A stretch of 46,815 nt of DNA. It comes from Nemertoderma westbladi (Eukaryota > Animalia > Xenacoelomorpha). Location of the stretch: contig JAUCBJ010001025.1 in the NCBI GenBank assembly GCA_032718475.1, positions 1-46,815 of the forward strand, written 5' to 3'. Both the position numbers and the translations under genes were made by a program. The notes under the pieces are model-generated. The model was not told the DNA's origin, searched no databases, and saw only the letters and a program-made list of their open reading frames with translations. Of this stretch, positions 4,405 through 45,113 are shown one piece after another. The stretch's first letter is position 1; every line of letters begins with the position of its first letter.

Positions 4405-4410
4405 GTGAGT

Positions 4411-11592: not shown

Positions 11593-11645
11593 GTTAGCCA
11601 TTTTATTATTCAGTCATTTTATTTTATGTTATGAATATTTGGTCC

Positions 11646-11804
11646 GGGAAATTCGACGCAAATAACAGCTGTTTACTCTCAAAAATAAAACTGTAACCTG
11701 TTCTATTGTGGTTAGTTTATTGTTTTGGTAAGAATTACGTGCCACTGTAACCTGCTCAATTCCCTTAATTGATAATCTAACATTGGGATTTGCGTCCAGT
11801 ACCC
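11646..11804. mobile_element. MITE-like non-autonomous element, copy 1
   Basis: Imperfect terminal inverted repeats gggaaattcgacgcaaat / atttgcgtccagtaccc; body (actctcaaaaataaaactgtaacctg...) closely matches 23007-23118. Confidence 0.65.
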
Positions 11805-11853
11805 CTCCCCCCATGTTTTTAATGAAATGTTAAAACGTATAAAAGATTCAAAC

Positions 11854-12741
11854 TTTGTTTTTGTTTCAGTTTATCGGTGGATAGTTAGGCGGGCCAGCGC
11901 CAACTAAATGGGTTTGTTTTTGTTTCAGTTTATCGGTGGAGAGTTAGGCGGGCCAGCGCCAACTAAATGGGTTTGTTTTTGTTTCAGTTTATCGGCGGTG
12001 AGTTAGGCGGGCCAGCGCCAACTAAATGGGTTTGTTTTTGTTTCAGTTTATCGGCGGTGAGTTAGGCGGGCCAGCGCCAACTAAATGGGTTTGTTTTTGT
12101 TTCAGTTTATCGGCGGTGAGTTAGGCGGGCCAGCGCCAACTAAATGGGTTTGTTTTTGTTTCAGTTTATCGGCGGAGAGTTAGGCGGGCCAGCGCCAACT
12201 AAATGGGTTTGTTTTTGTTTCAGTTTATCGGCGGTGAGTTAGGCGGGCCAGCGCCAACTAAATGGGTTTGTTTTTGTTTCAGTTTATCGGCGGAGAGTTA
12301 GGCGGGCCAGCGCCAACTAAATGGGTTTGTTTTTGTTTCAGTTTATCGGCGGTGAGTTAGGCGGGCCAGCGCCAACTAAATGGGTTTGTTTTTGTTTCAG
12401 TTTATCGGCGGAGAGTTAGGCGGGCCAGCGCCAACTAAATGGGTTTGTTTTTGTTTCAGTTTATCGGCGGTGAGTTAGGCGGGCCAGCGCCAACTAAATG
12501 GGTTTGTTTTTGTTTCAGTTTATCGGTGGAGAGTTAGGCGGGCCAACGCCAACTAAATGGGTTTGTTTTTGTTTCAGTTTATCGACGGAGAGTTAGGCGG
12601 GCCAGCGCCAACTAAATGGGTTTGTTTTTGTTTCAGTTTATCGGCGGAGAGTTAGGCGGGCCAGCGCCAACTAAATGGGTTTGTTTTTGTTTCAGTTTAT
12701 CGGCGGTGAGTTAGGCGGGCCAGCGCCAACTAAATGGGTTT
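11854..12741 (+). repeat. 59-bp tandem array x15 made of the NCX last 3' splice site plus the first 14 codons of the last exon
   Basis: Acceptor AG at 11869+59n up to 12695; unit tttgtttttgtttcag|tttatcggcggtgagttaggcgggccagcgccaactaaatggg. Confidence 0.97.
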
Positions 12742-12815
12742 CTGCGTTGTTTCTTTTGCTTCTATGGGTTGTTTATGTAACTCTATGCAGTTTACGCTCC
12801 TATAACTACATATAA
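12696..12815 (+). CDS. NCX: NCX terminal exon (FIGGELGGPAPTKWVSALFLLLLWVVYVTLCSLRSYNYI*)
   Basis: GGELGGP motif and final TM helix typical of NCX C-termini; only this 15th acceptor reads into the TM helix; TAA at 12813-12815. Confidence 0.9.
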   Translation, partial: FIGGELGGPAPTKWVSALFLLLLWVVYVTLCSLRSYNYI

Positions 12816-12942
12816 TGGAGATGTCATGGAGTTCGCTCGATTATTGTCTGCCTCAAATGGAAGGCCTTGGGAAGATTTAAGTGTCCTTTGAGTTTTTACT
12901 TCGCTATTGATGGCAAATTTTATACCAATCATAAATTGCGCC

Positions 12943-15348
12943 GGAACCAAGTTCGGAACCTTTACAAACGACCCGGAACCTTTACCAATAACCACTCCCT
13001 GAACCTTCTACATACTTGGAACCTTTAGCAATGACCAGTCCCTGAACCTTCTACGTACTTGGAACCTTTAGCAATGACCAGTCCCTGAACCTTCTACATA
13101 CTTGGAACCTTTACAAATGACCCGGAACCTTTACCAATGACCAGTCCCTGAACCTTCTACATACTTGGAACCTTTAGCAATGACCAGTCCCTGAACCTTC
13201 TACATACTTGGAACCTTTAGCAATGACCAGTCCCTGAACCTTCTACGTACTTGGAACCTTTAGCAATGACCAGTCCCTGAACCTTCTACGTACTTGGAAC
13301 CTTTAGCAATGACCAGTCCCTGAACCTTCTACGTACTTGGAACCTTTAGCAATGACCAGTCCCTGAACCTTCTACATACTTGGAACCTTTACAAATGCCA
13401 ATGACCCGAAACCTTCACCAATGAACAGTCCCTAAACCTTCTACATACTCGAAACCTTTACCAATGACCCGGAACCTTTACCAATGACCAGTCCCTGAAC
13501 CTTCTACATACTTGGAACCTTTAGCAATGACCAGTCCCTGAACCTTCTACATACTTGGAACCTTTAGCAATGACCAGTCCCTGAACCTTCTACGTACTTG
13601 GAACCTTTAGCAATGACCAGTAGTCCCTGAACCTTCTACATACTTGGAACCTTTAGCAATGACCAGTCCCTGAACCTTCTACGTACTTGGAACCTTTAGC
13701 AATGACCAGTCCCTGAACCTTCTACATACTTGGAACCTTTAGCAATGACCAGTCCCTGAACCTTCTACGTACTTGGAACCTTTAGCAATGACCAGTCCCT
13801 GAACCTTCTACGTACTTGGAACCTTTAGCAATGACCAGTCCCTGAACGTTCTACGTACTTGGAACCTTTAGCAATGACCAGTCCCTGAACCTTCTACATA
13901 CTTGGAACCTTTACAAATGCCAATGACCCGAAACCTTCACCAATGAACAGTCCCTAAACCTTCTACATACTCGAAACCTTTACCAATGACCCGGAACCTT
14001 TACCAATAACCACTCCCTGAACCTGCTATATACTTGGAACCTTTACCAACGACCCGGAACCTTTACCAATAACCACTCCCTGAACCTTATACCTTCTCGG
14101 AACCTTTACCAATGACCCGGACCCTTTACCAATGACCAGTCCCTGAACCTTCTACATACTTGGAACCTTTAGCAATGACCAGTCCCTGAACCTTCTACGT
14201 ACTTGGAACCTTTAGCAATGACCAGTCCCTGAACCTTCTACATACTTGGAACCTTTACAAATGACCCGGAACCTTTACCAATGACCAGTCCCTGAACCTT
14301 CTACATACTTGGAACCTTTAGCAATGACCAGTCCCTGAACCTTCTACATACTTGGAACCTTTAGCAATGACCAGTCCCTGAACCTTCTACGTACTTGGAA
14401 CCTTTAGCAATGACCAGTCCCTGAACCTTCTACGTACTTGGAACCTTTAGCAATGACCAGTCCCTGAACCTTCTACGTACTTGGAACCTTTAGCAATGAC
14501 CAGTCCCTGAACCTTCTACATACTTGGAACCTTTACAAATGCCAATGACCCGAAACCTTCACCAATGAACAGTCCCTAAACCTTCTACATACTCGAAACC
14601 TTTACCAATGACCCGGAACCTTTACCAATGACCAGTCCCTGAACCTTCTACATACTTGGAACCTTTAGCAATGACCAGTCCCTGAACCTTCTACGTACTT
14701 GGAACCTTTAGCAATGACCAGTCCCTGAACCTTCTACGTACTTGGAACCTTTAGCAATGACCAGTCCCTAAACCTTCTACATACTTGGAACCTTTACAAA
14801 TGCCAATGACCCGAAACCTTTACCAATGACCAGTCCCTGAACCTTCTACGTACTTGGAACCTTTAGCAATGACCAGTCCCTAAACCTTCTACATACTTGG
14901 AACCTTTACAAATGCCAATGACCCGAAACCTTTACCAATGACCAGTCCCTAAACCTTCTACATACTCGAAACCTTTACCAATGACCCGGAACCTTTACCA
15001 ATGACCAGTCCCTGAACCTTCTACATACTTGGAACCTTTAACAATGACCAGTCCCTAAATCTTCTACATACTTGGAACCTTTACAAATGCCAATGACCCG
15101 AAACCTTTACCAATGACCAGTCCCTGAACCTTCTACATACTTGGAACCTTTAACAATGACCCGAAACCTTTACCAATGACCAGTCCCTAAACCTTCTACA
15201 TACTTGGAACCTTTACCAATGACCCGGAACCTTTACCAATGACTAGTCCTTGAACCTTCTACATACTCGGAACCTTTACCAATGACCCTGAACCTTTACC
15301 AATGACCAGTCAGTCCATAAACCTTCTGCATACTCGGAACCTTTACCA
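12943..15348. repeat. Compound minisatellite, 43-bp main unit (ggaacctttagcaatgaccagtccctgaaccttctacatactt) with 20-bp sub-units, downstream of the NCX stop
   Basis: Recurrent GAACCTT core; higher-order duplication with 1144-bp offset (13111/14255, 13391/14535). Confidence 0.95.
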
Positions 15349-15700
15349 CAATACACCGATTTCTGCTAATTGCTTTCAATATGCGCCTAGTGACTGTAGC
15401 CTGTAGACTGGCCTACCCGAAAACACCACCCGTATATTGAAAAGCAATATGATAATATACCAATCCTTGCAATTCTTTGTTCTCAGTCACTTCGTTATTA
15501 TTTATAGAATTGTGAAAAATATTCCCAATTAGAATTAGCTATTTATGTACTAATTTGAATCAAACTTGCCCCACTTAATTATAGTTAAACATTTTGGTGG
15601 TGTATGTGTAATTTATTTCTCATTATTTGTGGATTTGTACCGAAGAACTGTTTCTATTTTGGGATGTAGTTGAGACGTATTTACACTTTTAGCATCTCTA

Positions 15701-16927
15701 CCCATTGGGTTAGGCAGTGCTGTAGTGTCTCCCCATCGGGTTAGGCAGTGCTGTAGTGTCTCCCATTGGGTTAGGCAGTGCTGTAGTCTCTCCCCATTGG
15801 GTTAGGCAGTGCTGTAGTGTCTCCCATTGGGTTAGGCAGTGCTGTAGTGTCTCTCATTGGGTTAGGCAGTGCTGTAGTGTCTCCCCATTGGGTTAGGCAG
15901 TGCTGTAGTGTCTCCCCATTGGGTTAGGCAGTGCTGTAGTGTCTCCCCATTGGGTTAGACAGTGCTGTAGTGCCTCCCCATCGGGTTAGGCAGTGCTGTA
16001 GTGTCTCCCATTGGGTTAGGCAGTGCTGTAGTGCCTCCCCATTGGGTTAGGCAGTGCTGTAGTGTCTCCCGATTGGGTTAGGCAGTGCTGTAGTGCCTCC
16101 CCATTGGGTTAGGCAGTGCTGTAGTGTCTCCCCATTGGGTTAGGCAGTGCTGTAGTGCCTCCCCATTGGGTTAGGCAGTGCTGTAGTGCCTCCCCATTGG
16201 GTTAGGCAGTGCTGTAGTGTCTCCCATTGGGTTAGGCTGTGCTGTAGTGTCTCCCATTGGGTTAGGCAGTGCTGTAGTGCCTCACCATTGGGTTAGGCAG
16301 TGCTGTAGTGCCTCCCCATTGGGTTAGGCAGTGCTGTAGTGTCTCCCCATTGGGTTAGGCAGTGCTGTAGTGCCTCCCCATTGGGTTAGGCAGTGCTGTA
16401 GTGCCTCCCCATTGGGTTAGGCAGTGCTGTAGTGCCTCCCCATTGGGTTAGACAGTGCTGTAGTGCCTCCCCATTGGGTTAGGCAGCGCTGTAGTGTCTC
16501 CCCATTGGGTTAGGCAGTGCTGTAGTGTCTCCCATGGGGTTAGGCAGTGCTGTAGTGTCTCCCGATTGGGTTAGACAGTGCTGTAGTGTCTCCCATTGGG
16601 TTAGGCAGTGCTGTAGTGTCTCCCGATTGGGTTAGGCAGTGCTGTAGTGTCTCCCCATTGGGTTAGGCAGTGCTGTAGTGTCTCCCATTGGGTTAGGCAG
16701 TGCTGTAGTGTCTCCCATTGGGTTAGGCAGTGCTGTAGTGTCTCCCCATTGGGTTAGGCAGTGCTGTAGTGTCTCCCCATTGGGTTAGGCAGTGCTGTAG
16801 TGTCTCCCCATTGGGTTAGGCAGTGCTGTAGTGTCTCCCCATTGGGTTAGGCAGTGCTGTAGTGTCTCCCAATTGGGTTAGGCAATGCTGTAGTGTTTCC
16901 CCATTGGGTTAGGCAGTGCTGTAGTGC
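15701..16927. repeat. Intergenic minisatellite, 30-31-bp unit (cccattgggttaggcagtgctgtagtgtctc), about 40 copies
   Basis: Clear periodicity; length variation in the C run. Confidence 0.97.
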
Positions 16928-18246
16928 TAACTACTTGTGGTACGGTTAGAAAGTCCATTGTTGTGGTTTTGCCAGTTGCCGTGACAACTGATTTTGCCAC
17001 TTCCATATTTTTGCGGTTCAGTGAATATTCAGTACCTGGTGTGTTTACTGTAACCGCTGAGTTCTCATGTAGGCCACCCTATTTGGCAGTTATTCAGGTC
17101 ACTAATAATTCAGTCGTATATTTCTACATTTATATTATTTTATTATATTTATTCAATGAAGAACAATAAGCCATTTGAGTGAAAAAAATGTTTAATTAAT
17201 CATCGACATTATTCGAATACCGGTAGACCCATGTTCGAATCCTGATGGTTGCCAATTTATATTTTTTCGCTTTAATCCACTTATTTTTTATATGTCCTTT
17301 TACAGCTTCTTCTGTTTCCTTTATCGGGTTTTTTGGGACTGTTAGCTAATAAACCTACACATAAATATTTTAGTTTATTTAGTATATGACGTCATTTATT
17401 CCTATTTTGTATTGTTTTTCCCTATAGTAGTTTTTGAAGTAATCTTTCTTTACTTGTAAATTGAATTTTCACTTGAGCATTTATTTTGTATTGTAAATTG
17501 TTTATATATTTTTGTAATAAATTAGCGGGTAAGAAAGATGGTGCTGTTGGTTTTATTGAAATAATTAATATATCGCTTTGGTATGGATATCAATAGCTGA
17601 TGGTCGAGATATATTTACGATTATTTTGCATAGGCCTAGTATATTTGTATTAATTAATATAGATAGCAGAAATTAATTTATCAACACCTTTAATTATTAT
17701 GCGTCTCCTAACATTAATTAAGACTGAATGTAAATCATTTATTAGAATTGTTTAAAACAAACCTTATTAATGGTATTAATCTTACAATGTAGATTATTTC
17801 CAAGAAATAAGATTATATATCAATTAATGTAGTCGGATATTACCAGTTATGTACAGGCCAAGCTGTAAAGACTGCGCAGCGCAATCATGGAAATCTAGTT
17901 TTTGCATAAATATTCAACTTATTCAAGAACTCCATACTATCTGGATCTGTTTTTACAGATTGCCGTTTGTTTCAGTTTGCCGCACCGACACGCTTAGCTC
18001 ACAGAATATCGTTTTGGCAACTGTTTTTTTCTTTTATTCAAACTGATACTTTTTTGGCATCGATTTTTCAATGAACCCGATTTTGTGCTCAGCTAATACT
18101 TGCACTGTGTCTGTAACGCGTTCGTTTGTGCTAAAAATATCACTTTATATAATATTATGTATGTTGGTGGTACAGTAACTACAATTATTATTATATTCCA
18201 CTTAATTGCAATTAATTAATTATTAAATTATAACAATAATGATCAT

Positions 18247-19119
18247 TTACAATTTGCTTTTATTGTCTCCCTTGTTTATGAATTTCTCCCACCACTTCGG
18301 TCTTTCGAAGACCCCCGGTTGCTTAGTAACGTGGTTATAAATGTTTTCGTAGATATTCCCATCTGCTTCGCCGAGAACCGAGTTAAGTACAAAATCCGGT
18401 GGCGCGAAAACATCAACCAAAGCGACAGCATCAGCTTTAAGCTCATCTGATAGCTCAATAATGCCTTCTCGAACGTCCCTGACAATATCCGACGAATATG
18501 CGAATCCTCCCTCGTAGAAACTCGATAGGTACTTCTCAACAACCCAGAGGCCATAGAGACAACATAAGGACCGCAATACCGGCTGTACATCAGCTTCGGT
18601 CTGTCCAATAAAGTTTATAAAGGATTCCATAGCAACGCAATGTATAAATATCTTACTCAACTCCTGAGCAAAGTAAACCTGGCTTTCATTCCGCGCCCGC
18701 CAAACATTCGCACCGCTTTTTAACAGACAGTCGACTTTTTCGCTGGTCTTCTTGATATGATAACAAACCAGCCATCTCGACAACCATAGAACTCTCGACG
18801 GATTGCGGGTTAAGTCTTTCAGTTTGTATTTGTTACTAAGTATTTCCTCCATGCGGCTAAGGAAGGAAACACTTCCTCCAGGTTTGATGTTATTAAACCG
18901 AATTGCTTGGTAGATTCCCAACAGATAGTTGGCAGTTTGCTGCAGTATCACGGTGTTGTCGCCCTCGTACGTGTTGTTTGGATCGTTGTTGTCGCGAAGT
19001 TCCCCGAACCTACTGGTTGCTAGGTAACCGTGACCCCCGCACGCTTCCCTACACTCCTGTATGCAGTTCTGGGCCATCCAGGACGCCACTGCCTTACTAG
19101 CACAGGAACACGCATGGAC
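18247..19119 (-). CDS. ACOX3: Peroxisomal acyl-CoA oxidase 3, exon 2 (C-terminal, ends in PTS1 SKL)
   Basis: QECREACGGHGY and TYEGDN motifs, C-terminal SKL*; acceptor ataaag at 19125-19120, phase 0. Confidence 0.92.
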   Translation of the reverse strand, partial: VHACSCASKAVASWMAQNCIQECREACGGHGYLATSRFGELRDNNDPNNTYEGDNTVILQQTANYLLGIYQAIRFNNIKPGGSVSFLSRMEEILSNKYKLKDLTRNPSRVLWLSRWLVCYHIKKTSEKVDCLLKSGANVWRARNESQVYFAQELSKIFIHCVAMESFINFIGQTEADVQPVLRSLCCLYGLWVVEKYLSSFYEGGFAYSSDIVRDVREGIIELSDELKADAVALVDVFAPPDFVLNSVLGEADGNIYENIYNHVTKQPGVFERPKWWEKFINKGDNKSKL

Positions 19120-20087
19120 CTTTATGGAGAGTTAGATAGTTAGAATTGATAAAAAGTATTTGAAAACAACCGAGCAAAGGGTCGTTAAGTAAACTTTAGG
19201 AAAACTATTTATTTTGGCAGCAAAACATTTCATTTTAATAAATTAATTTAGTTTAAAACTAAAATAATTGTTTAGACTCATTATCCTTTAGTAGAGTAGT
19301 TCATTATTACATTAAGGGGGGGGGGGGGGGGGGGGGGTCAGAAATCATGTGTTGAAATTTGATTTCTGTGCAGTCCAGACCATAAGCTACACGTATTAAA
19401 AAAAAATGAGAATGCTATTTCTGGAGAAGGCCCAAATTAATTTCGACCAAACTTTGCCAGGGTGTCACATAAAAATTTAGTCCATTTCTCATTCAAGTTA
19501 TCATAGCATGAAAACTTTTCAATGAAACATAAATAAAAATATTCAAGTAGTTCTCACATGAACTACAATTTAATGAATCATAAACCACCTTCTCAGAATG
19601 AAGACTTCTCAAGAAATATGATTTTTAAAATCCCCGATCGGGTAAAATGTTGTTTTCCAGAAAACCCGTTTAAAGATAAAGGTATAGAAATCAGTTCATA
19701 AATATCGTAATAATTATTTTAAAATTAGAAATCTATCATGTTTAAACTATATTAATATCATTATTCATTAAAAGCCTGGTCACATTCATATGGAATTATG
19801 AAAACTCCCATAGTAAATAATCACAATAGTCAGGGAGGGCCAATCACCTACTACTCGTTATTTATGATTGCAATGCGGTATTTTGCCGGAAGCTTGAAGA
19901 ATGTGGCCTGTTATTCAATAATCATAAAACAACTGCCTTCTATATCAAGATGTGATGCTCTTTTATGTGAAATTATAAATTTAAGCACCCATGGTTATAA
20001 CCGTTGTTAACGTGGTTACCATGGTTATAAGTACATAAGAGGCAATCAAATATTGAACTGAGCTGATCATTTCCTGGGTGAGCTGAT

Positions 20088-20555
20088 GTGATAATAGTTT
20101 ATCTCAACGCACTGTTGCAGGGCTCAGTGATAATAGTTTATCTCAACGCACTGTTGCAGGGCTCAGTGATAATAGTTTATCTCAACGCACTGTTGCAGGG
20201 CTCAGTGATAATAGTTTATCTCAACGCACTGTTGCAGGGCTCAGTGATAATAGTTTATCTCAACGCACTGTTGCAGGGCTCAGTGATAATAGTTTATCTC
20301 AACGCACTGTTGCAGGGCTCAGTGATAATAGTTTATCTCAACGCACTGTTGCAGGGCTCAGTGATAATAGTTTATCTCAACGCACTGTTGCAGGGCTCAG
20401 TGATAATAGTTTATCTCAACGCACTGTTGCAGGGCTCAGTGATAATAGTTTATCTCAACGCACTGTTGCAGGGCTCAGTGATAATAGTTTATCTCAACGC
20501 GCTGTTGCAGGGCTCAGTGATAATAGTTTATCTCAACGCACTGTTGCAGGGCTCA
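20088..20555. repeat. 39-bp minisatellite x12 (gtgataatagtttatctcaacgcactgttgcagggctca) in the ACOX3 intron
   Basis: 468 bp = 12 x 39; one substitution seen. Confidence 0.97.
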
Positions 20556-21162
20556 GAGTTGCAAAGCATCTTCTCAATGAGTAGAAATGAAGAAAAATAT
20601 GGATACTTTCTGTTGATCGATTCTGCACTCATTGAAATTAAGGGACTATAACAACTAATATTCATATTTCGTATTAATATAGTTCGTTTCCCGCACCTGG
20701 TTCGCTTACTGTTACTAAATTAACTGAAAGTCAACAACTACTCAGAATTTTTGAAACGAAAACCGTTTTCATCACCAAATTCACCATTGAATTCTGGTTT
20801 AGAAACGGTGATAAAAAAAATATCGAAAATTTTGACCAATTTGCACTCTACCCCCCCCCCCCCCCCTAACTTTATCTATGATCATGGTCACAAATATATT
20901 GCTGATAAGAACTCACTTTTGAGATGATAGTTCTTTAGGCTGAAAAGGAAAGAAAACAACCCAGAACTAAGGGTATAAAATCAGTGATCAAGAGAAAGGA
21001 GCAGGTTACAGTTTCATCAACCAAAACATTATCAAAAACCCGGAACTATGGGTAAAGTGAAAGATTTAAATTTGGCCAGAATTTGTTTATGTTTAGGCGG
21101 GGACTTCCAATTCCAATTTTGTATATATTTTCGCTTGTTTTCATCCATTCTAACTAGCCAAC

Positions 21163-22371
21163 CTCATGTATTAGCTCTTCGTTATTTCCATTGTCGCCCC
21201 CGTGTGTTATTTTATTGAACTGCCGACAGAGTTTGCGGCTGTAGCAGTCCATTGCGTACGCCGCCGCTAGGTACGGCAGCAGACGGCACTGCTGACTCTG
21301 GTATTCTAGAACTGGAATTTCGTGGAGTTTTCCAGTCGACGGCTCGTGAAACTGCTTCCGGACGGCGGAGTAACGAATCGCGATGACGAGAGAGAGTTTC
21401 ATATTGACGACTCCGATGGTTGTTATGCCAACGCGACCGCCGGACAACGAGCCCAGAGTGGCCGCGAATCGTTTATCGTCGTTGCTATAGCGACTAACGT
21501 ACTCCCCACCCTCGCTCACGTCGCTGTGTTTATTTAGAAGATTTTCCCGCGGAATCCGGTAGTTATTAAAGGAAACGAATCCGTTGTCGATCCCGTTGAG
21601 ACCCAGTTTCTTACCGATGTCGCCAACAGTAACGCCATCTAGCGGGAGCAAAGTAGTAGCTTCGCGAATCGGCGTAACGAATCCGTGTAACCCGTGGCAA
21701 CTGTCGTCTCCAGCGTATAGTTGCGCGAAAAGAACTGCGTGCGTCGCCGACTTTCCGAGGTTTCCCACCCAGAATTTGGTTGCCTCGGTATCCGGAGTGT
21801 TTATAAGAAACTCCCGCGTGTCGGCGTCGTACCGTGCCGTAGTTCGGGTCGACTTTACGTCGGAACCGTGGGATAATTCCGTCAACGCGAAACAACCGAA
21901 CAATCCCAGATCGGAAGTCTCCTCTACGAACCGACGATGTCTCGCTGTTCCCATGGCAACCACTGCCGAGCCGAACATTTGGAAATGAAGAACGAACTTT
22001 GAGAGGCAATTCCAGTCGAACATTCCCATGGAATGCTGAAAGTTGTACATCAGTAAGGGATCTTTAGCCAACCCCTCTTGCGTCACCAACTGGCATTCTA
22101 TTATTCTCCTTGTTCTCAACGCCGTCACCTCCCTGAGATCATCGTGACTCTCGCCTGCTTTTTGGGAACTTTTCGCGAACACTGGTTCCCGCTCTATTAG
22201 TTCCCAAACTCTCCGTTGATACAGCAGACTGTCACCTCCGTACCAAAGGAAACGTAGTCGTCGCCAATCAAAGCTCGCCCTGTCTCTGTAGGCAGTGAGA
22301 CCCCCAGCGGGGAGATCAGGAATCAGAGTTAGTATGTCAAGTTTCTGTCCTTCGCTTGAGACAGCAGACAT
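21163..22371 (-). CDS. ACOX3: Peroxisomal acyl-CoA oxidase 3, exon 1 (start may be ATG 22371 or 22395)
   Basis: YR.RASFDW, GCFALTELSHGS, KFWVGNLGK, GLNGIDNG, AIRYSAVRKQF motifs characteristic of ACOX3-type oxidases; donor GAG|gttggc at 21162. Confidence 0.92.
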
Positions 22372-22717
22372 TTCTAGATTATTGCATAACAGCATCCAAT
22401 AGGAAATATATTAGATGCTTTATGTGACATATTTTGATATTCCGAAAAAGCAAAAGCCTTATTGTAATGAAGAAAAGTAAAAAAAATCACTAAAAAACGC
22501 CAAACTTTAAAAAATTGAATGTAAAATTGAAGTGCATAATTTTATCACAAATATATACGTAAATAATACTACTGGTTGCTAGGAAGGAGTTGTTTCTATG
22601 TATTGTAGTGTGGAACACCTTAGTGTGTCCATATGGATTCAATCACATTGAGGTGTAACTGAAGCAAATCTGGTATGTGAAGGTGTTTGAAGGCAGCATG
22701 ATTGATGTGTTTTATAA

Positions 22718-22739
22718 GGGGTGGGGGTGGGGGTGGGGG
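22718..22739 (+). promoter_or_regulatory. (GGGGGT)-type G-quadruplex / CACCC-box-like tract about 350 bp upstream of ACOX3
   Basis: ggggtgggggtgggggtggggg: four G runs with 1-nt loops; function not shown. Confidence 0.3.
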
Positions 22740-22956
22740 AGAGGTTGGTAACGGAAATTGTTCAGACTAAATATAACCTAATAAGTCAAGCCACAAACGT
22801 TTTTTACACGAATTCGATAACAGTGTGTATCGTGTAATCGCTTCAACTAATAAAATATTTGATGATAAAAATAGTTGAAACGAAATATTAACAATCTGGT
22901 CGTCCAGGAAACGGACCAATATTCTACCTCGGTCTTCTTGCGTGCGTAGATAATGG

Positions 22957-23162
22957 GGGAAACTGGACGCATAAAAATTCATCCCAGACGCACATAACTG
23001 CTGATCACTCTCAAAAATAAAACTGTAACCTGATCTATTGTGTTTAGTTTATTGTTTTGGTTAAAATAACGTGTCACTGTAACCTGCTCCTTTCCCCAAA
23101 TTGAGAATTTAACATTGATGAGGGATATTAATTCGCCAAGATGGGATTTGCGTCCAGTTCCC
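22957..23162. mobile_element. MITE-like non-autonomous element, copy 2
   Basis: Terminal inverted repeats gggaaactggacgca / tgcgtccagttccc; body matches 11675-11785 and carries an extra segment near 23118-23141. Confidence 0.68.
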
Positions 23163-23736
23163 TCCCTTTCTGTATTGCGTCAACATTAGCGGGTTTTTCA
23201 CTTTTTCTCTTGAATTTATGTAGTGTTGCTCATAAAAAAATCATATTTGCATTGGATATATATTTAAGAAGTCTATTGATTGTTAAAAGTTACATAACAA
23301 TTAATTCACATGTTTATCAATTATGTATTATTTACATGAAAATACTACAAAAATATAACGCATTTACTTATTATTAAATAGTTCATTGTCAAAGGTTCCA
23401 CAAAATATATGACTATAGTAAAAAACATTTTAATAACGCAGAGCTTTCAGCGAAGCCTATAGCCAACATGGATTAAACTTTAACAAAATGTTATAATCGA
23501 TTTATTAAATAAATATTTACAACTATTTACAATCTATTGTGATCAATATTATTGCACAACGTGGGATAAAAAATTATATTTACTAACAATTTACTTCAAC
23601 TCTTGGCTTAAATCCGGGGCCCACATCAATTAAAATTAATTACAAGACGATGTTATTACAGTATTATAATTAAAAGTATATATAATCTAAATTAAATAGA
23701 TTATAATTGAAAGGTTCCAAGTTAAATTATAAAATA

Positions 23737-32700: not shown

Positions 32701-35437
32701 AATATCTCCCCCAACAAACACTGCTTCAAGATAAACCCAGATATTTTGAACCTGCAATAACATCTCAACTATGTCATTTGACTGGGATAACTTTGCAATG
32801 TATTTCTGCAACTCGGCTTTGAATGGCAAATTGTATCGGTTGCTCATTAATGTGCTCAGTATCATCATAGAATCTTCCATTAGGGCAATCAGTTCAATGA
32901 CTGAATCGCCCTTTAGCAACAACTCACCACGATTTTTAAATTGTCCAAATTTAAATATCTGCATTTCCCAGGTAGTCTTCATAGCTTTCAGTTTTGCTTC
33001 AATATCCAATTCCTTGAGCGCTGCAATACAAATATCTTCAATGTCCTCCTTGTGATGAAGAAGTGAAACCTCCATAACATCTTTCAATGTCAGAAAATCG
33101 TTCAGTATGTTTATATCGGCTCCAGTGACCTTGTTTATTCTGGACCAGTGCCTTTCCTTCATTGCCTTGTTTGTCATCATTTCAATGAGAGGGCAGGTTT
33201 CAGTCAAATCATCAACACATTTTTTTAGTTCGGTGAAGGCTGGATAATCTTTGAGGGCCCGCGGAAGCCTCTTGCATTTCTTCTGAAACTCTTGAAGATC
33301 CTCAGAAATCTTAATGATATCAATTTCTGTCCAAGTTGTTTCGTTATATTTTGCTATGCTGACAAGTACAGAATTATAAAGGGTGTATAACTTCCAAAGA
33401 AGTACCAGTTCCTTTTTTACTCGGTGAAGTTCGGGGTAGCTAGTTACAGGTAAACCAAAAAGTAGTTCGCCTCCAGAACATGTCTCATAGCTAGCCCATA
33501 ACTCGTCAAACTGCAATTGATAGAAACTTAGACTCTCATAAGCTTCTGTAGGGCTAATACCGGGGGTTGTTGGGCCCTTTTCGGTATATTTTTCCAGGAA
33601 AATATCAAAATCTACCTGAAAAGTGTTAATGGCAGTTAACAACCCGGTCTTAAATGATTGCTGGATCTCCAACAAAATGTCCTGCTTCTTTGCAGCATCA
33701 GATAAGATATTACGCATAGCATACCCCAATGAATCTACCTTCTCTTGAGTGCCTTGCTCGCAAATAACTCCATGTCTATTAAATAAAAAATATGCTTCTT
33801 CAACTTTCTTTACATCTACCTCCATGTCTAGCTGTTTGTCACGAACATCAACTAATGCAGTCATGACAGTCCGGATGCTATCCAGAGATTTTACTTTTTT
33901 ACTTAAATTCTTCTTGGTAGCAGTGAGAAAGTTTGATATTTCATTCATTTTAACATTGATGTGTGCTGTGATAGTTCTCGCGAATTCCTGTTTCCACGTA
34001 TTGCAATCCTGCAACAAACCTAGCTTCAAGGGTTCCAGTCTCAGTAATAATGGTCCTACTCTATGCTCTGATGGTATATTTTCTATTGTCTTTTCAAGAA
34101 ATGAAAATTCGCGTATTTTTAGGCTGAAGTCGTATAGAAGGTCTTTAGATTGATCAGCGGCATCAGAGGCGCACTTTACAGGGTCATTGTTCCATAAATG
34201 ATTGTAGCTCTGAAACTGCTCAAGCCAAGAGCAGATATCGCTCTCAATCTCTGGAATCAAAGAGTTCAGCTTATATGCGGCTTTGGCGATGTCTTTATTA
34301 TCATGAAGAACTTTAAATATTGATTTTACTGTCATTGTTGTCTTCAAATTCGGGGAATCTTCCATTGGATTCATCTCGGAAATAATGAGTGCATCTTTTT
34401 TCTCCATTTCAATCCGGGTATGGTCGTGATTCCAGTTGGGGAAATCCGTTCCGATTCCAATAAGTATTTGGCCTGCTTGGTTTATTGCACTCTGTATCTC
34501 ATCCAGTCCAGGTTTACAAACAATATTCGGAATCTCTAAAACAACGTCAGTTAAAAATACAGGGGGAAGAGATGCATTCCTTCCATGATGTAGTTGTGCA
34601 TCATACACACATTTGCGAATGTATTTAATATTCTCAGCAACACAACGGGACAAAACGTCGAGATTTTTAGCACCAAATAGAGTTAAGGTGTCCCAGAAAT
34701 GGCAAGGAAGGCACTCTTTACACCGTTTAACCTTGTATTTGCCCAGTGGGTTTCTGCAGAGGTAATACGGGGCTTCCATGTTAATGAGTTCATCAGGGAG
34801 AAGCTCTTTCTTCAACATGTGGAACAGTTCATTTATTGAAACCTCGATAAACTGACTGGCCGACGCGAGAGTTTTTCTACTAGCATTCACTACTTGCTGC
34901 GTCATGTTTATGAATTCTTGTATTGATACCGGTTCCTCTTCTGGTATAAAACAAATATCTGTAGATCTTATTTTCTGGAACGTGTTTTCTATACGATTCT
35001 CCAAAATTTCGCTAGCGCGACGTGTTACGAGTTCGAAGTGAGATAGTTGGCTTTCGACGTTACTGATGAAAACATTGGAATTTAAAGACATCCAAGTGTG
35101 AATCTTTATCCCCGGTAACATTTCATCGAATAGTCTTAAACGATAACCGGTCATCAGTGGTTCAATAATGGGGGGCGTGTTCTTTATGATTATCCTATAA
35201 TGTGTGAGTAAATTGTTCACTCCATTATAGGTTTTCTTTAATTCCGGTTCTTTATGAATCAGCTGTCTAGCAAAGGTAGGGAGTTCCAGGCCCATCCTCG
35301 CCATATGTTTCGATTCATCGATAAGTTCTAATATCGATCTATCGAAGTTGGTTTGAAACAAGTCTGTCTCCGGGTCTTGGAAGAATAGACAGGAATTCAG
35401 AGCCGTCCTTACAACATCAACCATTTTAATCCATGCA
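23737..35437 (-). CDS. DNAH5: Axonemal outer-arm dynein heavy chain (DNAH5/DNAH8 type), 11.7-kb terminal exon: tail, linker, AAA1-6, stalk, C-terminus
   Basis: P-loops GPAGTGKT, GPSGAGKT, GEQGTAKT, GVGGCGKQS; WGCFDEFNRI; C-terminal WILRGVALLCD; acceptor tttcgcag ending at 35438, phase 2 giving YH-S-AWIKM. DNAH5 versus DNAH8 cannot be settled by eye. Confidence 0.93.
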
Positions 35438-35511
35438 CTGCGAAATTAAAATAGTAGATTCAGATAGATATAATTACCATCTTACATTATGTCAACTTCT
35501 CCGCTCAGGTG

Positions 35512-35695
35512 GGATATCATCGTCACTTAGAAACGGATATCATCGTCACTTAGAAACGGATATCATCGTCACTTAGAAACGGATATCATCGTCACTTAGA
35601 AACGGATATCATCGTCACTTAGAAACGGATATCATCGTCACTTAGAAACGGATATCATCGTCACTTAGAAACGGATATCATCGTCACTTAGAAAC
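35512..35695. repeat. 23-bp minisatellite x8 (ggatatcatcgtcacttagaaac)
   Basis: 184 bp = 8 x 23, perfect; 74 bp from the dynein acceptor. Confidence 0.97.
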
Positions 35696-36235
35696 AATCA
35701 ACATCTGGTACGTGTTTTGAGTATTATACCATTGTATGCTAATTGTAAGATTATTTACCCTACAGTTAGTTGTAGTGTTAGCAACTAGTATAAAAACGAT
35801 ATTTCAATAATATTTCTAAACATTACAATTTAAAAGCTAATAATTAAGCAATCAGAAGACCGATTAGTTGACATAATGTAATAAAATTACGTATATCATT
35901 GTGTGAAACTATTAGCAATATTCAGCGTTTATGACCCTAGTATATTTATGTAAACCCTCTAACTGGGCTCGCCTGGGCCATAAAGAAAAATATTGAATTT
36001 TTCTCACAATTATGTAAATTATTGTTACTACAATATTTGAATGCGAATTAAGTTCGTCAAAAAAACGACTCTATAAAATGTGTGAAAATGGTTCATACTA
36101 ATATTCCAAATATAGAACGTGGAACTGTGGAAATTTACTCATGATGAGAACAATAACATACCACTCACTATTCAATAACGATTACTTTTACTTTTCCGTG
36201 AACATAACATAACAAAGAATCAGCCGTATTGGATG

Positions 36236-39200
36236 AGCCACTCACCTGCAGTACAACATTTCGTACTGTATCAGCCACTCACCTGCAGTACAACATTTCG
36301 TACTGTATCAGCCACTCACCTGCAGTACAACATTTCGTACTGTATCAGCCACTCACCTGCAGTACAACATTTCGTACTGTATCAGCCACTCACCTGCAGT
36401 ACAACATTTCGTACTGTATCAGCCACTCACCTGCAGTACAACATTTCGTATTGTATCAGCCACTCACCTGCAGTACAACATTTCGTACTGTATCAGCCAC
36501 TCACCTGCAGTACAACATTTCGTACTGTATCAGCCACTCACCTGCAGTACAACATTTCGTACTGTATCAGCCACTCACCTGCAGTACAACATTTCGTACT
36601 ATATCAGCCACTCACCTGCAGTACAACATTTCGTATTGTATCTGCCACTCACCTGCAGTACAACATTTCGTACTGTATCAGCCACTCACCTGCAGTACAA
36701 CATTTCGTACTGTATCAGCCACTCACCTGCAGTACAACATTTCGTACTGTATCAGCCACTCACCTGCAGTACAACATTTCGTATTGTATCAGCCACTCAC
36801 CTGCAGTACAACATTTCGTACTGTATCAGCCACTCACCTGCAGTACAACATTTCGTACTGTATCAGCCACTCACCTGCAGTACAACATTTCGTACTGTAT
36901 CAGCCACTCACCTGCAGTACAACATTTCGTACTGTATCAGCCACTCACCTGCAGTACAACATTTCGTATTGTATCTGCCACTCACCTGCAGTACAACATT
37001 TCGTACTGTATCAGCCACTCACCTGCAGTACAACATTTCGTACTGTATCAGCCACTCACCTGCAGTACAACATTTCGTACTGTATCAGCCACTCACCTGC
37101 AGTACAACATTTCGTACTGTATCAGCCACTCACCTGCAGTACAACATTTTGTACTGTATCAGCCACTCACCTGCAGTACAACATTTCGTACTGTATCAGC
37201 CACTCACCTGTGGTACAACATTTCGTACTGTATCAGCCACTCACCTGCAGTACAACATTTCGTACTGTATCAGCCACTCACCTGCTGTACAACATTTCGT
37301 ACTGTATCAGCCACTCACCTGCAGTACAACATTTCGTACAGTATCAGCCACTCACCTGCAGTACAACATTTCGTACTGTATCAACAACATTTCGTACTGT
37401 ATCAGCCACTCACCTGCAGTACAACATTTCGCACTGTATCAGCCACTCACCTGCAGTACAACATTTCGTACTGTATCATCCACTCAACTGTGGTACAACA
37501 TTTCGTACTGTATCAGCCACTCACCTGCAGTACAACATTTCGTACTGTATCAGCCACTCACCTGCTGTACAACATTTCGTACTGTATCAGCCACTCACCT
37601 GCAGTACAACATTTCGTATTGTATCAGCCACTCACCTGCAGTACAACATTTCGTACTGTATCAGCCACTCACCTGCAGTACAACATTTCGTACTGTATCA
37701 GCCACTCACCTGCAGTACAACATTTCGTACTATATCAGCCACTCACCTGCAGTACAACATTTCGTATTGTATCTGCCACTCACCTGCAGTACAACATTTC
37801 GTACTGTATCAGCCACTCACCTGCAGTACAACATTTCGTACTGTATCAGCCACTCACCTGCAGTACAACATTTCGTACTGTATCAGCCACTCACCTGCAG
37901 TACAACATTTCGTACTGTATCAGCCACTCACCTGCAGTACAACATTTCGTACTGTATCAGCCACTCAACTGTGGTACAACATTTCGTACTGTATCAGCCA
38001 CTCACCTGCAGTACAACATTTCGTACAGTATCAGCCACTCACCTGCAGTACAACATTTCGTACTGTATCAACAACATTTCGTACTGTATCAGCCACTCAC
38101 CTGCAGTACAACATTTCGTACTGTATCAGCCACTCACCTGCAGTACAACATTTCGTACTGTATCAGCCACTCACCTGCAGTACAACATTTCGTACTGTAT
38201 CAGCCACTCACCTGCAGTACAACATTTCGCACTGTATCAGCCACTCACCTGCAGTACAACATTTCGTACTGTATCAGCCACTCAACTGTGGTACAACATT
38301 TCGTACTGTATCAGCCACTCACCTGCAGTACAACATTTCGTACTGTATCAGCCACTCACCTGCTGTACAACATTTCGTACTGTATCAGCCACTCACCTGC
38401 AGTACAACATTTCGTATTGTATCAGCCACTCACCTGCAGTACAACATTTCGTACTGTATCAGCCACTCACCTGCAGTACAACATTTCGTACTGTATCAGC
38501 CACTCACCTGCAGTACAACATTTCGTACTATATCAGCCACTCACCTGCAGTACAACATTTCGTATTGTATCTGCCACTCACCTGCAGTACAACATTTCGT
38601 ACTGTATCAGCCACTCACCTGCAGTACAACATTTCGTACTGTATCAGCCACTCACCTGCAGTACAACATTTCGTACTGTATCAGCCACTCACCTGCAGTA
38701 CAACATTTCGTACTGTATCAGCCACTCACCTGCAGTACAACATTTCGTACTGTATCAGCCACTCAACTGTGGTACAACATTTCGTACTGTATCAGCCACT
38801 CACCTGCAGTACAACATTTCGTACAGTATCAGCCACTCACCTGCAGTACAACATTTCGTACTGTATCAACAACATTTCGTACTGTATCAGCCACTCACCT
38901 GCAGTACAACATTTCGCACTGTATCAGCCACTCACCTGCAGTACAACATTTCGTACTGTATCAGCCACTCAACTGTGGTACAACATTTCGTACTGTATCA
39001 GCCACTCACCTGCAGTACAACATTTCGTACTGTATCAGCCACTCACCTGCAGTACAACATTTCGTACTGTATCAGCCACTCACCTGCTGTACAACATTTC
39101 GTACTGTATCAGCCACTCACCTGCAGTACAACATTTCGTATTGTATCAGCCACTCACCTGCTGTACAACATTTCGTACTGTATCAGCCACTCACCTGCAG

Positions 39201-42200
39201 TACAACATTTCGTACAGTATCAGCCACTCACCTGCAGTACAACATTTCGTACTGTATCAACAACATTTCGTACTGTATCAGCCACTCACCTGCAGTACAA
39301 CATTTCGTACTGTATCAGCCACTCACCTGCAGTACAACATTTCGTACTGTATCAGCCACTCACCTGCAGTACAACATTTCGTACTGTATCAGCCACTTAC
39401 CTGCAGTACAACATTTCGTACTGTATCAGCCACTTACCTGCAGTACAACATTTCGTACTGTATCAGCCACTTACCTGCAGTACAACATTTCGTACTGTAT
39501 CAGCCACTCACCTGCAGTACAACATTTCGTACTGTATCAGCCACTTACCTGCAGTACAACATTTCGTACTGTATCAGCCACTCACCTGCAGTACAACATT
39601 TCGTATTGTATCAGCCACTTACCTGCAGTACAACATTTTGTACTGTATCAGCCACTCACCTGCAGTACAACATTTCGTACTGTATCAGCCACTCAACTGT
39701 GGTACAACATTTCGTACTGTATCAGCCACTCACCTGCAGTACAACATTTCGTACTGTATCAGCCACTCACCTGCAGTACAACATTTCGTATTGTATCTGC
39801 CACTCACCTGCAGTACAACATTTCGTACTGTATCAGCCACTCACCTGCAGTACAACATTTCGTACTGTATCAGCCACTCACCTGCAGTACAACATTTCGT
39901 ACTGTATCAGCCACTCACCTGCAGTACAACATTTCGTACTGTATCAGCCACTCACCTGCAGTACAACATTTCGTACTGTATCAGCCACTCACCAGCAGTA
40001 CAACATTTCGTACTGTATCAGCCACTCACCTGCAGTACAACATTTCGTACTGTATCAGCCACTCACCTGCTGTACAACATTTCGTACTGTATCAGCCACT
40101 CACCTGCAGTACAACATTTCGTACTGTATCAGCCACTCACCTGCAGTACAACATTTCGTACTGTATCAGCCACTCACCTGCAGTACAACATTTCGTACTG
40201 TATCAGCCACTCACCTGCAGTACAACATTTCGTACTGTATCAGCCACTCACCTGCAGTACAACATTTCGTACTGTATCAGCCACTCACCTGCAGTACAAC
40301 ATTTCGTACTGTATCAGCCACTCACCTGCAGTACAACATTTCGTACTGTATCAGCCACTCAACTGTGGTACAACATTTCGTACTGTATCAGCCACTCACC
40401 TGCAGTACAACATTTCGTACAGTATCAGCCACTCACCTGCAGTACAACATTTCGTACTGTATCAACAACATTTCGTACTGTATCAGCCACTCACCTGCAG
40501 TACAACATTTCGTACTGTATCAGCCACTCACCTGCAGTACAACATTTCGTACTGTATCAGCCACTCACCTGCAGTACAACATTTCGTACTGTATCAGCCA
40601 CTCACCTGCAGTACAACATTTCGCACTGTATCAGCCACTCACCTGCAGTACAACATTTCGTACTGTATCAGCCACTCAACTGTGGTACAACATTTCGTAC
40701 TGTATCAGCCACTCACCTGCAGTACAACATTTCGTACTGTATCAGCCACTCACCTGCTGTACAACATTTCGTACTGTATCAGCCACTCACCTGCAGTACA
40801 ACATTTCGTATTGTATCAGCCACTCACCTGCAGTACAACATTTCGTACTGTATCAGCCACTCACCTGCAGTACAACATTTCGTACTGTATCAGCCACTCA
40901 CCTGCAGTACAACATTTCGTACTATATCAGCCACTCACCTGCAGTACAACATTTCGTATTGTATCTGCCACTCACCTGCAGTACAACATTTCGTACTGTA
41001 TCAGCCACTCACCTGCAGTACAACATTTCGTACTGTATCAGCCACTCACCTGCAGTACAACATTTCGTACTGTATCAGCCACTCACCTGCAGTACAACAT
41101 TTCGTACTGTATCAGCCACTCACCTGCAGTACAACATTTCGTACTGTATCAGCCACTCAACTGTGGTACAACATTTCGTACTGTATCAGCCACTCACCTG
41201 CAGTACAACATTTCGTACAGTATCAGCCACTCACCTGCAGTACAACATTTCGTACTGTATCAACAACATTTCGTACTGTATCAGCCACTCACCTGCAGTA
41301 CAACATTTCGCACTGTATCAGCCACTCACCTGCAGTACAACATTTCGTACTGTATCAGCCACTCAACTGTGGTACAACATTTCGTACTGTATCAGCCACT
41401 CACCTGCAGTACAACATTTCGTACTGTATCAGCCACTCACCTGCAGTACAACATTTCGTACTGTATCAGCCACTCACCTGCTGTACAACATTTCGTACTG
41501 TATCAGCCACTCACCTGCAGTACAACATTTCGTATTGTATCAGCCACTCACCTGCTGTACAACATTTCGTACTGTATCAGCCACTCACCTGCAGTACAAC
41601 ATTTCGTACAGTATCAGCCACTCACCTGCAGTACAACATTTCGTACTGTATCAACAACATTTCGTACTGTATCAGCCACTCACCTGCAGTACAACATTTC
41701 GTACTGTATCAGCCACTCACCTGCAGTACAACATTTCGTACTGTATCAGCCACTCACCTGCAGTACAACATTTCGTACTGTATCAGCCACTTACCTGCAG
41801 TACAACATTTCGTACTGTATCAGCCACTTACCTGCAGTACAACATTTCGTACTGTATCAGCCACTTACCTGCAGTACAACATTTCGTACTGTATCAGCCA
41901 CTCACCTGCAGTACAACATTTCGTACTGTATCAGCCTCTTACCTGCAGTACAACATTTCGTACTGTATCAGCCACTCACCTGCAGTACAACATTTCGTAT
42001 TGTATCAGCCACTTACCTGCAGTACAACATTTTGTACTGTATCAGCCACTCACCTGCAGTACAACATTTCGTACTGTATCAGCCACTCAACTGTGGTACA
42101 ACATTTCGTACTGTATCAGCCACTCACCTGCAGTACAACATTTCGTACTTTATCAGCCACTCACCTGCAGTACAACATTTCGTATTGTATCTGCCACTCA

Positions 42201-44763
42201 CCTGCAGTACAACATTTCGTACTGTATCAGCCACTCACCTGCAGTACAACATTTCGTACTGTATCAGCCACTCACCTGCAGTACAACATTTCGTACTGTA
42301 TCAGCCACTCACCTGCAGTACAACATTTCGTACTGTATCAGCCACTCACCTGCAGTACAACATTTCGTACTGTATCAGCCACTCACCAGCAGTACAACAT
42401 TTCGTACTGTATCAGCCACTCACCTGCAGTACAACATTTCGTACTGTATCAGCCACTCACCTGCTGTACAACATTTCGTACTGTATCAGCCACTCACCTG
42501 CAGTACAACATTTCGTACTGTATCAGCCACTCACCTGCAGTACAACATTTCGTACTGTATCAGCCACTCACCTGCAGTACAACATTTCGTACTGTATCAG
42601 CCACTCACCTGCAGTACAACATTTCGTACTGTATCAGCCACTCACCTGCAGTACAACATTTCGCACTGTATCAGCCACTCACCTGCAGTACAACATTTCG
42701 TACTGTATCAGCCACTCACCTGCAGTACAACATTTCGTACTGTATCAGCCACTCACCTGCAGTACAACATTTCGTACTGTATCAGCCACTCACCTGCTGT
42801 ACAACATTTCGTACTGTATCAGCCACTCACCTGCAGTACAACATTTCGTACAGTATCAGCCACTCACCTGCAGTACAACATTTCGTACTGTATCAACAAC
42901 ATTTCGTACTGTATCAGCCACTCACCTGCAGTACAACATTTCGCACTGTATCAGCCACTCACCTGCAGTACAACATTTCGTACTGTATCAGCCACTCACC
43001 TGCAGTACAACATTTCGTACTGTATCAGCCACTCACCTGCAGTACAACATTTCGTACTGTATCAGCCACTCACCTGCACTGCAGTACAACATTTCGTATT
43101 GTATCAGCCACTCACCTGCAGTACAACATTTCGTACTGTATCAGCCACTCACCTGCAGTACAACATTTCGTACTGTATCTGCCACTCACCTGCAGTACAA
43201 CATTTCGTACTGTATCAGCCACTCACCTGCAGTACAACATTTCGCACTGTATCAGCCACTCACCTGCAGTACAACATTTCGTACTGTATCAGCCACTCAA
43301 CTGTGGTACAACATTTCGTACTGTATCAGCCACTCACCTGCAGTACAACATTTCGTACTGTATCAGCCACTCACCTGCAGTACAACATTTCATACTATAT
43401 CAGCCACTCTCTGCCACTCACCTGTGGTACAAAATTTCATACTGTATCAGCCACTCTCAGCCACTCCCCTGTGGTACAACATCTCGTATTGTACCAGCCA
43501 CTCACCTGTGGTACATAATCTCGAATTGTATCAGCCATCAGCCACTCTCTGCCACTCACATGTGGTACAACATTTATACTGTATCAGCCACTCTCAGCCA
43601 CTCACTCACCTGTGGTACAGCATTTCGTATTGGATCAACCACTCACCTGTGGTACAACATTTCATATTGTATCAGCCACTGTGGTACAACCTTTCGTACT
43701 GTATCAACCACTCACCTGTGGTACAACATTTCATACTGTATCAGACACTCTCTACCACTCATCTGTGGTACAACATCTCGCATTGTATCAGACACTCTCC
43801 GCCACTCACCTGTGGTACAACATTTCGTACTGTATCAGCCACTCTCAGCCACTCACCTGTGGTACGTACAACATCTCGTATTGTATCAGCCACTCTCTGC
43901 CACTCACCTCCGGTACAACATCACGTATTGTATCAGCCACTCTCTACCACTCACCTGTGGTACAACATTTCATACTGTATCAGCCACTCTCTGCCACTCG
44001 CCTGTGGTACAACATCACGTATTGTATCAGCCACTCTCTGCCACTTATCTGTGGTACAACATTTCATATTGTATCAGCCACTCTAAGCCACTCACCGGTG
44101 GTACAACATTTCATTCTGTATCCGCCACTCTCAGCCACTCACCTGTGGTACAACATCTCGTATTGTATCAGCCACTCTCTGCCACTCACCTGTGGTACAA
44201 CATCTCGTATTGTATCAGCCACTCTCTGCCATTCACCTGTGGTACAACATTTCATATTGTATCAGCCACTTTCTGCCACTCACCTGTGGTACAACATCAC
44301 GTATTGTATCAACCACTCACCTGTGGTACAACATTTCATACTGTATCAGCCACTCTCTGCCACTCATCTGTGGTACAACATTTCATATTGTATCAGCCAC
44401 TCTCTGCCACTCACCTGTGGTACAACATCTCGTATTGTATCAGCCACTCTCTGCCACTCACCTGTGGTACACCATCTCGTATTGTATCAGCCACTCTCTG
44501 CCATTCACCTGTGGTACAACATTTCATATTGTATCAGCCACTCTCTGCCACTCACCTGTGGTACAACATCACGTATTGTATCAACCACTCACCTGTGGTA
44601 CAACATTTCATACTGTATCAGCCACTCTCAGCCACTCACCTGTGGTACAACATCTCGTATTGTATCAGCCACTCTCTGCCACTCACCTGTGGTACAACAT
44701 CTCGTATTGTATCAGCCACTCTCTGCCACTTACCTGTGGTACAACATCTCGTATTGTATCAGC
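36236..44763 (-). repeat. About 220-copy 37/47-bp array made of the last 30 nt of a dynein exon plus its 5' splice donor
   Basis: Minus-strand unit tggctgatacagtacgaaatgttgtactgcag|gtgag versus exon end gtgctgatacaatacgagatgttgtaccacag|gtaagtgg; the array runs into the exon to 44763. Confidence 0.97.
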
Positions 44764-45113
44764 ACTGTCGACAACCGATTGTACCTCCGTATTGCCACAC
44801 GGGCCTGCGGTGTCGACGCTATCTTCGGCATCTTTCTGATTAATTCCATCGGGATGTTTATCCTACGGAACAGCTGACGAGCCCAGATAATCTTTCCGGC
44901 TACAGGCGGCATGTTCCGTTCTATAGGTGGGTCCATCTTCTCGGCCTCGTATTGCCGCGAGCAGGATGATAAGTCCTGCTCGTATCTCTGGACCACCATC
45001 TGGTACTTGTTCTCTACATCGAGATTCGCTCCAACTATATTCTCGAATTTCTCCAGAGCGATCAACACTAGTTGGGTGGAAAGTTTATGTTGGAAGAAAT
45101 TATCCATGAAAAC
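44734..45113 (-). CDS. DNAH5: Dynein heavy chain exon (VFMDNFF...DPPIERNMPPVAGKIIWARQLFRRI...LIQYEMLYH)
   Basis: Conserved DHC N1 motif RN.PP.AGKI.WARQL; acceptor ttctcag ending 45114, donor CAG|gtaagt at 44733. Confidence 0.93.

Follow-up and report, generated by a model that had tools for sequence, protein, structure and literature searches.

Minisatellite-like duplications of exon boundaries are known from amphioxus, where the sections of Ebner et al. 2010 (PMC3087553) drawn on here describe them at both 5′ and 3′ boundaries in the globin genes BflGb6 and BflGb9, with splice signals in many units, though not in every one, and with regular splicing kept, as judged by RT-PCR. The same sections name them 'mirages' after the Adh3 work (Canestro et al. 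2002, as cited there), suggest that they are general in cephalochordates, and cite the Rogers model of intron gain by tandem duplication; a portion of PMC3902484 adds troponin C and PGBD5 as amphioxus mirages. For human F7, the parts of Borensztajn et al. 2006 (PMC1557585) used here describe a 37-bp VNTR in which identical downstream donors are functional yet unused, and the most upstream one wins. Human repeats with related properties are the dual-specific AGGT repeats of UBC and VCX3A (PMC10809524) and the internal tandem repeats at exon-intron boundaries treated by De Grassi and Ciccarelli 2009 (PMC2812944), both considered from extracts of those papers.

The window (the whole stretch of 46,815 bases that was analysed) contains an acceptor-type array in a sodium-calcium exchanger (NCX) gene and a donor-type array in an axonemal dynein gene (Table 1). 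As in the amphioxus cases, boundaries are copied in tandem, both acceptor and donor types occur, and one unit appears to serve the real transcript; the repeats are head to tail, a real host junction lies within the unit, and splice signals are present in many but not all units. Concerted evolution, a feature of amphioxus mirages, has its counterpart here in ordered variant blocks, a 2,394-bp higher-order copy, and a gradient of divergence. However, the host is not an amphioxus and occupies a long separate branch, the dynein array runs to 227 units in 8.5 kb where the BflGb6 account gives 3–6, and normal splicing was checked by RT-PCR in amphioxus whereas here it is predicted from the sequence. 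The dynein array is also similar to the F7 intron 7 VNTR, in that the first unit provides the authentic donor and pseudo-donors of like sequence follow it; the 37-bp unit length common to the two is taken as coincidence. The F7 account gives 5–9 sites compared to 194 in the dynein array, the authentic dynein donor is GTAAGT whereas most of its decoys are GTGAGT, and in F7 a mutational test was made and the normal product comes from the most upstream site alone, the next donor being expected to take over if that one is mutated, whereas the dynein counterpart is predicted from sequence.

Like the repeats of UBC and VCX3A, the dynein units have AG directly before GT, and this juxtaposed AG/GT, the criterion for a recursive site, is seen in 194/227 dynein units and is lacking in NCX. 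The human repeats, as far as the extract describes them, lie in coding sequence and create introns, whereas the dynein intron contains, besides the array, 603 nt of unique sequence and an acceptor of its own, the length of its units is not divisible by three, and the AG of the unit follows a poor pyrimidine tract that falls short of acceptor grade (pyrimidine share 0.47, versus 0.53–0.88 for 14 real acceptors). With the human boundary repeats of PMC2812944 the arrays share the recurring expansion of boundary minisatellites as a surveyed phenomenon, although segmental duplications were surveyed in that extract, with about four units on average and often with alternative transcripts. The preliminary description of this DNA knew of no named system that would fit; the arrangement is in fact already known, matching the amphioxus 'mirage' of PMC3087553 and PMC3902484 and the F7 IVS7 repeat of PMC1557585 in the parts used, and the present example is notable mainly for its size, with 8.5 kb of decoy donors.

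Three genes are represented in the window: the forward strand carries the 3′ part of NCX, and the reverse strand an ACOX3-like gene that is complete with two exons, together with the 3′ part of a DNAH5-like dynein gene. The joined models are free of internal stops and encode 336 aa for NCX (55% against Glandiceps NCX residues 567–878), 4,261 aa for dynein (58% identity to an Elysia DNAH5-like protein) and 693 aa for ACOX3 (47% identity to medaka). The best matches are spread across many phyla, at 50–53% identity for dynein and about 50% for ACOX3, and a FastTree of 34 sequences, without sponge or ctenophore rows, places the host beside acoels on a long branch (support 0.53) and gives it no supported sister; a scan for related loci returned two distant loci. 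Tandem arrays recognised by TRF number 11 and cover 21,902 of the 46,815 bases (47%).

Table 1. Coordinates of the genes, exons, arrays and motifs described in the window.
Feature	Position	Strand	Remarks
45-bp array in NCX intron	1–3928	+	Possible third mirage, donor-type; outer end outside window
NCX (SLC8-like), 3′ part	3977–12815	+	Exons 3977–4103, 4299–4404, 8249–8293 (optional), 10215–10293
NCX, remaining exons	10449–10571, 11087–11316, 11411–11592, 12696–12815	+	
Penultimate NCX exon	11411–11592	+	Phase-0 donor must join acceptor 12695/12696
NCX acceptor-type mirage array	11854–12741	+	15 x 59 bp; units 1–14 intronic, unit 15 coding
Branch-point-like CTAA (predicted)	12671–12675	+	Branch A at −22 from coding acceptor; exon-derived part of unit 14
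Terminal NCX coding exon	12696–12815	+	Last transmembrane helix and stop
ACOX3-like gene	18247–22371	−	One intron, 19120–21162, containing 39-bp array
DNAH5-like axonemal dynein heavy chain, 3′ part	23737–46355	−	Exons 46232–46355, 45889–46142, 45265–45591, 44734–45113, 23737–35437
Dynein donor-type mirage array	36225–44763	−	227 units; first unit coding
Distal dynein block	36225–43400	−	Homogenised 37-mers, higher-order duplication
Exon-proximal part of dynein array	43400–44763	−	More varied, mostly 47-mers
Dynein seed exon	44734–45113	−	Last 29 bases in first unit; authentic donor CAG/GTAAGT at 44734/44733

There are several other features of these genes that we note. The NCX exon at 8249–8293 is a weakly supported candidate, being 45 bp long and phase-symmetric with a weak donor (GTCTAG), and the frame holds with or without it, such that it may be optional or not real. 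The dynein exon at 23737–35437 is a single coding exon of 11,701 bp (about 3,900 codons), and the four dynein introns in view all belong to the 5′ part, which is suggestive of heavy 3′-biased intron loss in an animal. A 131-bp dispersed repeat, possibly a small mobile element, is present in two copies that are 88% identical, one (11655–11785) just upstream of the NCX array and the other (22987–23117) between the dynein and ACOX3 genes. In the region 12816–17520 the first AATAAA after the NCX stop appears only at 17348, with a CATAAA at 12930, and arrays of 43-bp and 31-bp units that follow the stop may lie in the 3′ UTR.

The NCX array is reported by TRF with a period of 59, 15.1 copies and 97% matches. 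Each unit is composed of 16 nt of intron end, finishing in AG, and 43 nt of exon start; the intronic 16 bases are the same in 15/15 units. The tail of 39 aa encoded by the exon beginning at 12696 in unit 15 has its match in the last helix of human NCX1 (E 9e-5). Splicing to unit 1, which has an in-frame TAG, would give a 4-aa tail and splicing to units 2–14 tails of 25 aa, and all 14 of the decoy products are predicted to lack the last helix; the full protein is predicted through the outermost acceptor only, that of unit 15. With only 16 intron bases copied, unit 15 can have a branch point at the usual distance only within the exon-derived part of unit 14, where the predicted CTAA is found, and CTAA or CTGA occupies this same position (−22) in several real acceptors of the window. 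No CTAA branch-like motif is present in the 50 nt before unit 1, which may explain the skipping of this unit, while units 2–15 are not separated by it. Since the exon behind it is the sole unique feature of unit 15, we infer exon definition for NCX. By predicted RNA folding unit 15 does not stand out (0.56 unpaired, versus 0.40–0.59 for the decoys), and folding as a mask for decoys was rejected because coding and decoy sites are no different. The coding unit also has an internal donor (GCG/GTGAGT, its GTGAGT at 12706–12711) 10 bases past the acceptor, as do several decoys; in other units it is lost through a synonymous-site change.

In the dynein array the full units consist of 29 nt of exon end and 8 or 18 nt of intron start, and by our unit parse 192 units are 37 bp, 21 are 47 bp, eight are 21 bp, and six have other lengths. 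The authentic donor matches the consensus at 9/9 positions, the best of the 12 donors in the window, with most decoys at 8/9, and the join from it to the next exon has no indel relative to the four homologues compared. The intron is in phase 2 with an in-frame stop right past the first donor, so that any later donor would yield a premature stop; an intact frame is thus predicted through the outermost donor only, with every decoy giving a stop. The dominant unit reads TGCAG/GTGAGT at the boundary and has a CTGAT branch-like motif at −26.

The dynein array is organised into 46 distinct unit types in ordered blocks. A perfect copy of 1,768 bases, offset by 2,394 bp, marks a recent block duplication. 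Units 1, 2, 7, 12 and 13 have an exon part identical to the coding end, and divergence from the coding end grows with distance (means of 1.3, 2.8 and 4.0 differences in 29 bases; for the first 30 units, rho 0.43 and P 0.027). The coding unit has a 47-type tail and, taken with the five exact nearby matches and the roughly 4/29 divergence of distant units, this suggests that the working exon end is itself involved in the turnover of the array. The 47-mer holds a 10-base direct repeat across the unit-unit joint, and is most likely derived from the 37-mer once the array existed. Divergence of the dynein decoys chiefly through synonymous changes was considered and rejected by inspection: the three commonest old changes are synonymous, but the variants as a whole include many replacements and a stop.

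Much of the structure set out in the preliminary description stands. The arrays straddle an NCX acceptor and a dynein donor as it proposed, with homology-based junctions at 12695/12696 and 44733/44734 inside the terminal units, and its view that the outermost site must be used agrees with frames that are predicted to be intact only through the outermost sites, with stops through all decoys. The extent given for NCX (15 x 59 bp, 11854–12741) is unchanged, but the dynein array starts at 36225 rather than 36236 and has 227 units rather than about 220. All decoys were said to have intact splice signals, which is so for NCX, where the acceptor is kept in 15/15 units, but in dynein AG/GTRAGT is kept in 194/227 units and missing in 33. 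The proteins were called otherwise intact, and the parts in the window do have no internal stops, but both genes begin outside it.

That the arrays are real was examined in read-derived contigs, for which three DNA runs (X1–X3) from two studies hold the locus, all three carrying a flag as its possible sources. The NCX unit in X2 forms a circular contig of 89 nt (59+30) with a depth of 117 compared to 15.9 for the flank, a ratio of 7.4 versus the 9.9 copies predicted from the assembly for those words; the ratio is 4.4 in X3 and up to 20 in X1 and unit variants differ between runs too; contig depth is not a copy count. The dominant dynein unit forms a circular contig of 67 nt (37+30) in X2 with a depth of 1,988 compared to 12.6–17, a ratio of 117–158 versus 119 predicted from the assembly, with depth again a rough guide to copies. 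Contigs of all three runs, compared by eye, link the dynein unit to the far flank near 36180. In the dynein exon the read contigs differ from the window at four positions in X1 and at one in X2, and the 4/4 differences are synonymous, a pattern expected of a working gene. A further run with the same species label (X5) has no contig match on the NCX stretch, which is not proof of absence. The presence of both units at roughly the assembled depth in contigs from two studies argues against an assembly artefact, the outcome that would have undone the preliminary description. That both arrays are artefacts or grossly over-expanded is scarcely credible: the 1,768-base perfect repeat within the dynein array, the identity of 85/87 units in the 45-mer array, and the flagging of X1–X3 as possible sources could all be read in that way, but the circular contigs formed by the units in the runs from two studies, the depth ratios of X2 for both units, and the 46 dynein unit types in ordered blocks all speak against it.

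The 45-bp array at the left end of the window is a possible donor copy, with a seed exon that would be located upstream of the window. It is near-perfect, with two donor-like hexamers per unit, and in homologues its peptide aligns to residues −14 to −6 relative to the next NCX exon, with a GTAAGG donor following it. A block test using the common unit and four peptide lengths gave P 0.03–0.11, compared to P 0.001 for the dynein control, and the donors are in phase 1 in the matching frame, whereas phase 2 is needed by the next exon. A metagenome scan with the 45-mer returned 0 matches.

The preliminary description also proposed a recurrent process that targets exon ends. As a null, each array was collapsed to one unit and seeds were placed at random, excluding those wholly within coding sequence, in a space of 26 junctions in 25,277 bases; the window truncates two of the 11 arrays at its ends. 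A junction is spanned by two of the 11, against an expectation of 0.92 (P 0.23), or 0.65 with six bases required on each side (P 0.13), and for the seven arrays with units of at least 20 bp and both ends in view the expectations are 0.70 or 0.52 (P 0.15 and 0.09). Across all variants of the test 0.5–0.9 are expected and P is 0.09–0.24; nine of the 11 arrays span no visible junction. Junction overlap by itself falls short of significance in the window, and a junction-targeting system is not supported here. If the 45-mer array is counted, three of 11 span a junction and P becomes 0.02–0.06. Arrays within 10 nt of a junction are 4/11 versus 1.2 expected (P 0.027, post hoc, with seven thresholds examined), and the mean log distance of arrays to junctions is low (P 0.029, also post hoc). 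None of the nine units of at least 20 bp has a match elsewhere in the window, which indicates that arrays arise locally everywhere, and in an HMM test of the arrays for an exon origin, scores above zero were obtained for the 59-, 47- and 37-mers alone. Two other arrays begin 9–10 bases past NCX donors, these being an AT-rich 15-mer (4415–6189) and a pure (CCGA)227 microsatellite (8303–9212). In the literature searched, which largely left out subscription papers, no published genome-wide count of junction-spanning minisatellites was found for invertebrates.

We consider it probable that both arrays are locus-born, junction-spanning minisatellites ('mirages') that were started by chance, expanded by slippage, and tolerated through ordinary splicing at the outermost site, and the extra copies are likely to be harmless by-products of a very repeat-prone genome. 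Each array would have originated in a chance short tandem duplication, of 37 bp in dynein and 59 bp in NCX, with the dynein 47-mer arising later by a 10-nt slip over the unit-unit joint, and slippage and unequal exchange would then have expanded them like other arrays in the window. Survival would act as a filter, because one complete exon is left after a duplication that covers a junction, whereas the frame would usually be lost with a duplication confined to an exon. The choice of dynein donor would be first-come and exon-defined, taking the most upstream site as shown for F7, and would be helped by that donor having the best consensus match among the 12. For NCX, the last acceptor would be defined by the unique terminal exon behind it, using the branch-like motif from the exon-derived part of unit 14. 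This acceptor choice is the least secure of the proposed steps, and the fact that nearest-acceptor choice would take unit 1 and give a truncated protein counts against the scheme, as do the post hoc proximity of arrays to junctions and the possible third mirage. Use of the outermost site is what we infer in both genes.

A mutational bias could instead seed duplications at or near splice junctions, for example through transcription- or splicing-linked breaks that are mended by local duplication, so that mirages would be over-represented genome-wide. The proximity test (P about 0.03), the two arrays that start 9–10 nt after donors, and the 45-mer as a possible third mirage, with its peptide at −14 to −6 before the next NCX exon, all point in this direction; but direct overlap gives P 0.09–0.24, only 11 arrays are available with two cut by the window ends, the thresholds were post hoc, and the 45-mer donors are in phase 1 where phase 2 is needed, and we regard such a bias as unlikely. 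We would give about the same low credence to a wider proposal, which joins junction-preferring seeding of minisatellites genome-wide with a tolerance of hundreds of decoys. In dynein it would have an 8.5-kb run of about 190 AG/GT dual sites cleared by first-donor choice or by self-correcting re-splicing, and in NCX a spliceosome that skips 14 identical acceptors and borrows a branch point from duplicated exon sequence.

Stepwise removal of the decoys, raised in the preliminary description for both arrays, is possible by sequence for dynein and not for NCX. As the dynein unit is AG/GT, a donor would be regenerated by splicing into any unit, and if a wrong donor were used, what is left would be an intron that ends at the AG of that unit and can still be removed. 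The 194/227 units with AG/GTRAGT, the dominant unit with its CTGAT motif, and the use of dual-specific AGGT sites in tandem repeats of human UBC (in the extract of PMC10809524) are consistent with stepwise or self-correcting removal of the dynein array; nonetheless we hold it to be quite improbable, given a pyrimidine share before the unit AG that is under all 14 real acceptors, first-donor choice without such a step in the F7 data used (PMC1557585), and an NCX array that is outside its reach, since the NCX junction regenerates no site. It is more doubtful still that the arrays leak, with decoys used measurably, copy number tuning NCX or dynein output, or the NCX copy partly disabled. NCX units 2–15 do have the same acceptor and branch context, several NCX units including the coding one contain the internal GCG/GTGAGT donor, and boundary repeats alter splicing in human genes (PMC2812944, in part); but amphioxus mirages left splicing undisturbed by RT-PCR and the F7 pseudo-sites are silent in the relevant sections of PMC3087553 and PMC1557585, and all decoy products would be truncated, with no sign of a useful isoform.

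The two arrays extend mirages to another animal lineage, at a size far larger than in the published cases compared, and arrays of this kind can lead gene prediction astray. Of the two, that in NCX is the more useful, with 14 decoys of identical acceptor context standing before the only site predicted to give the full protein, and RNA from this animal would be a direct test, at a terminal exon, of exon definition versus nearest-site scanning. An excess of junction-spanning arrays genome-wide, if true, would suggest that splicing or transcription is linked to the sites of small duplications, and if junction-preferring seeding and the tolerance of hundreds of decoys were both to hold genome-wide, the genome would be a natural test bed for splice-site choice.
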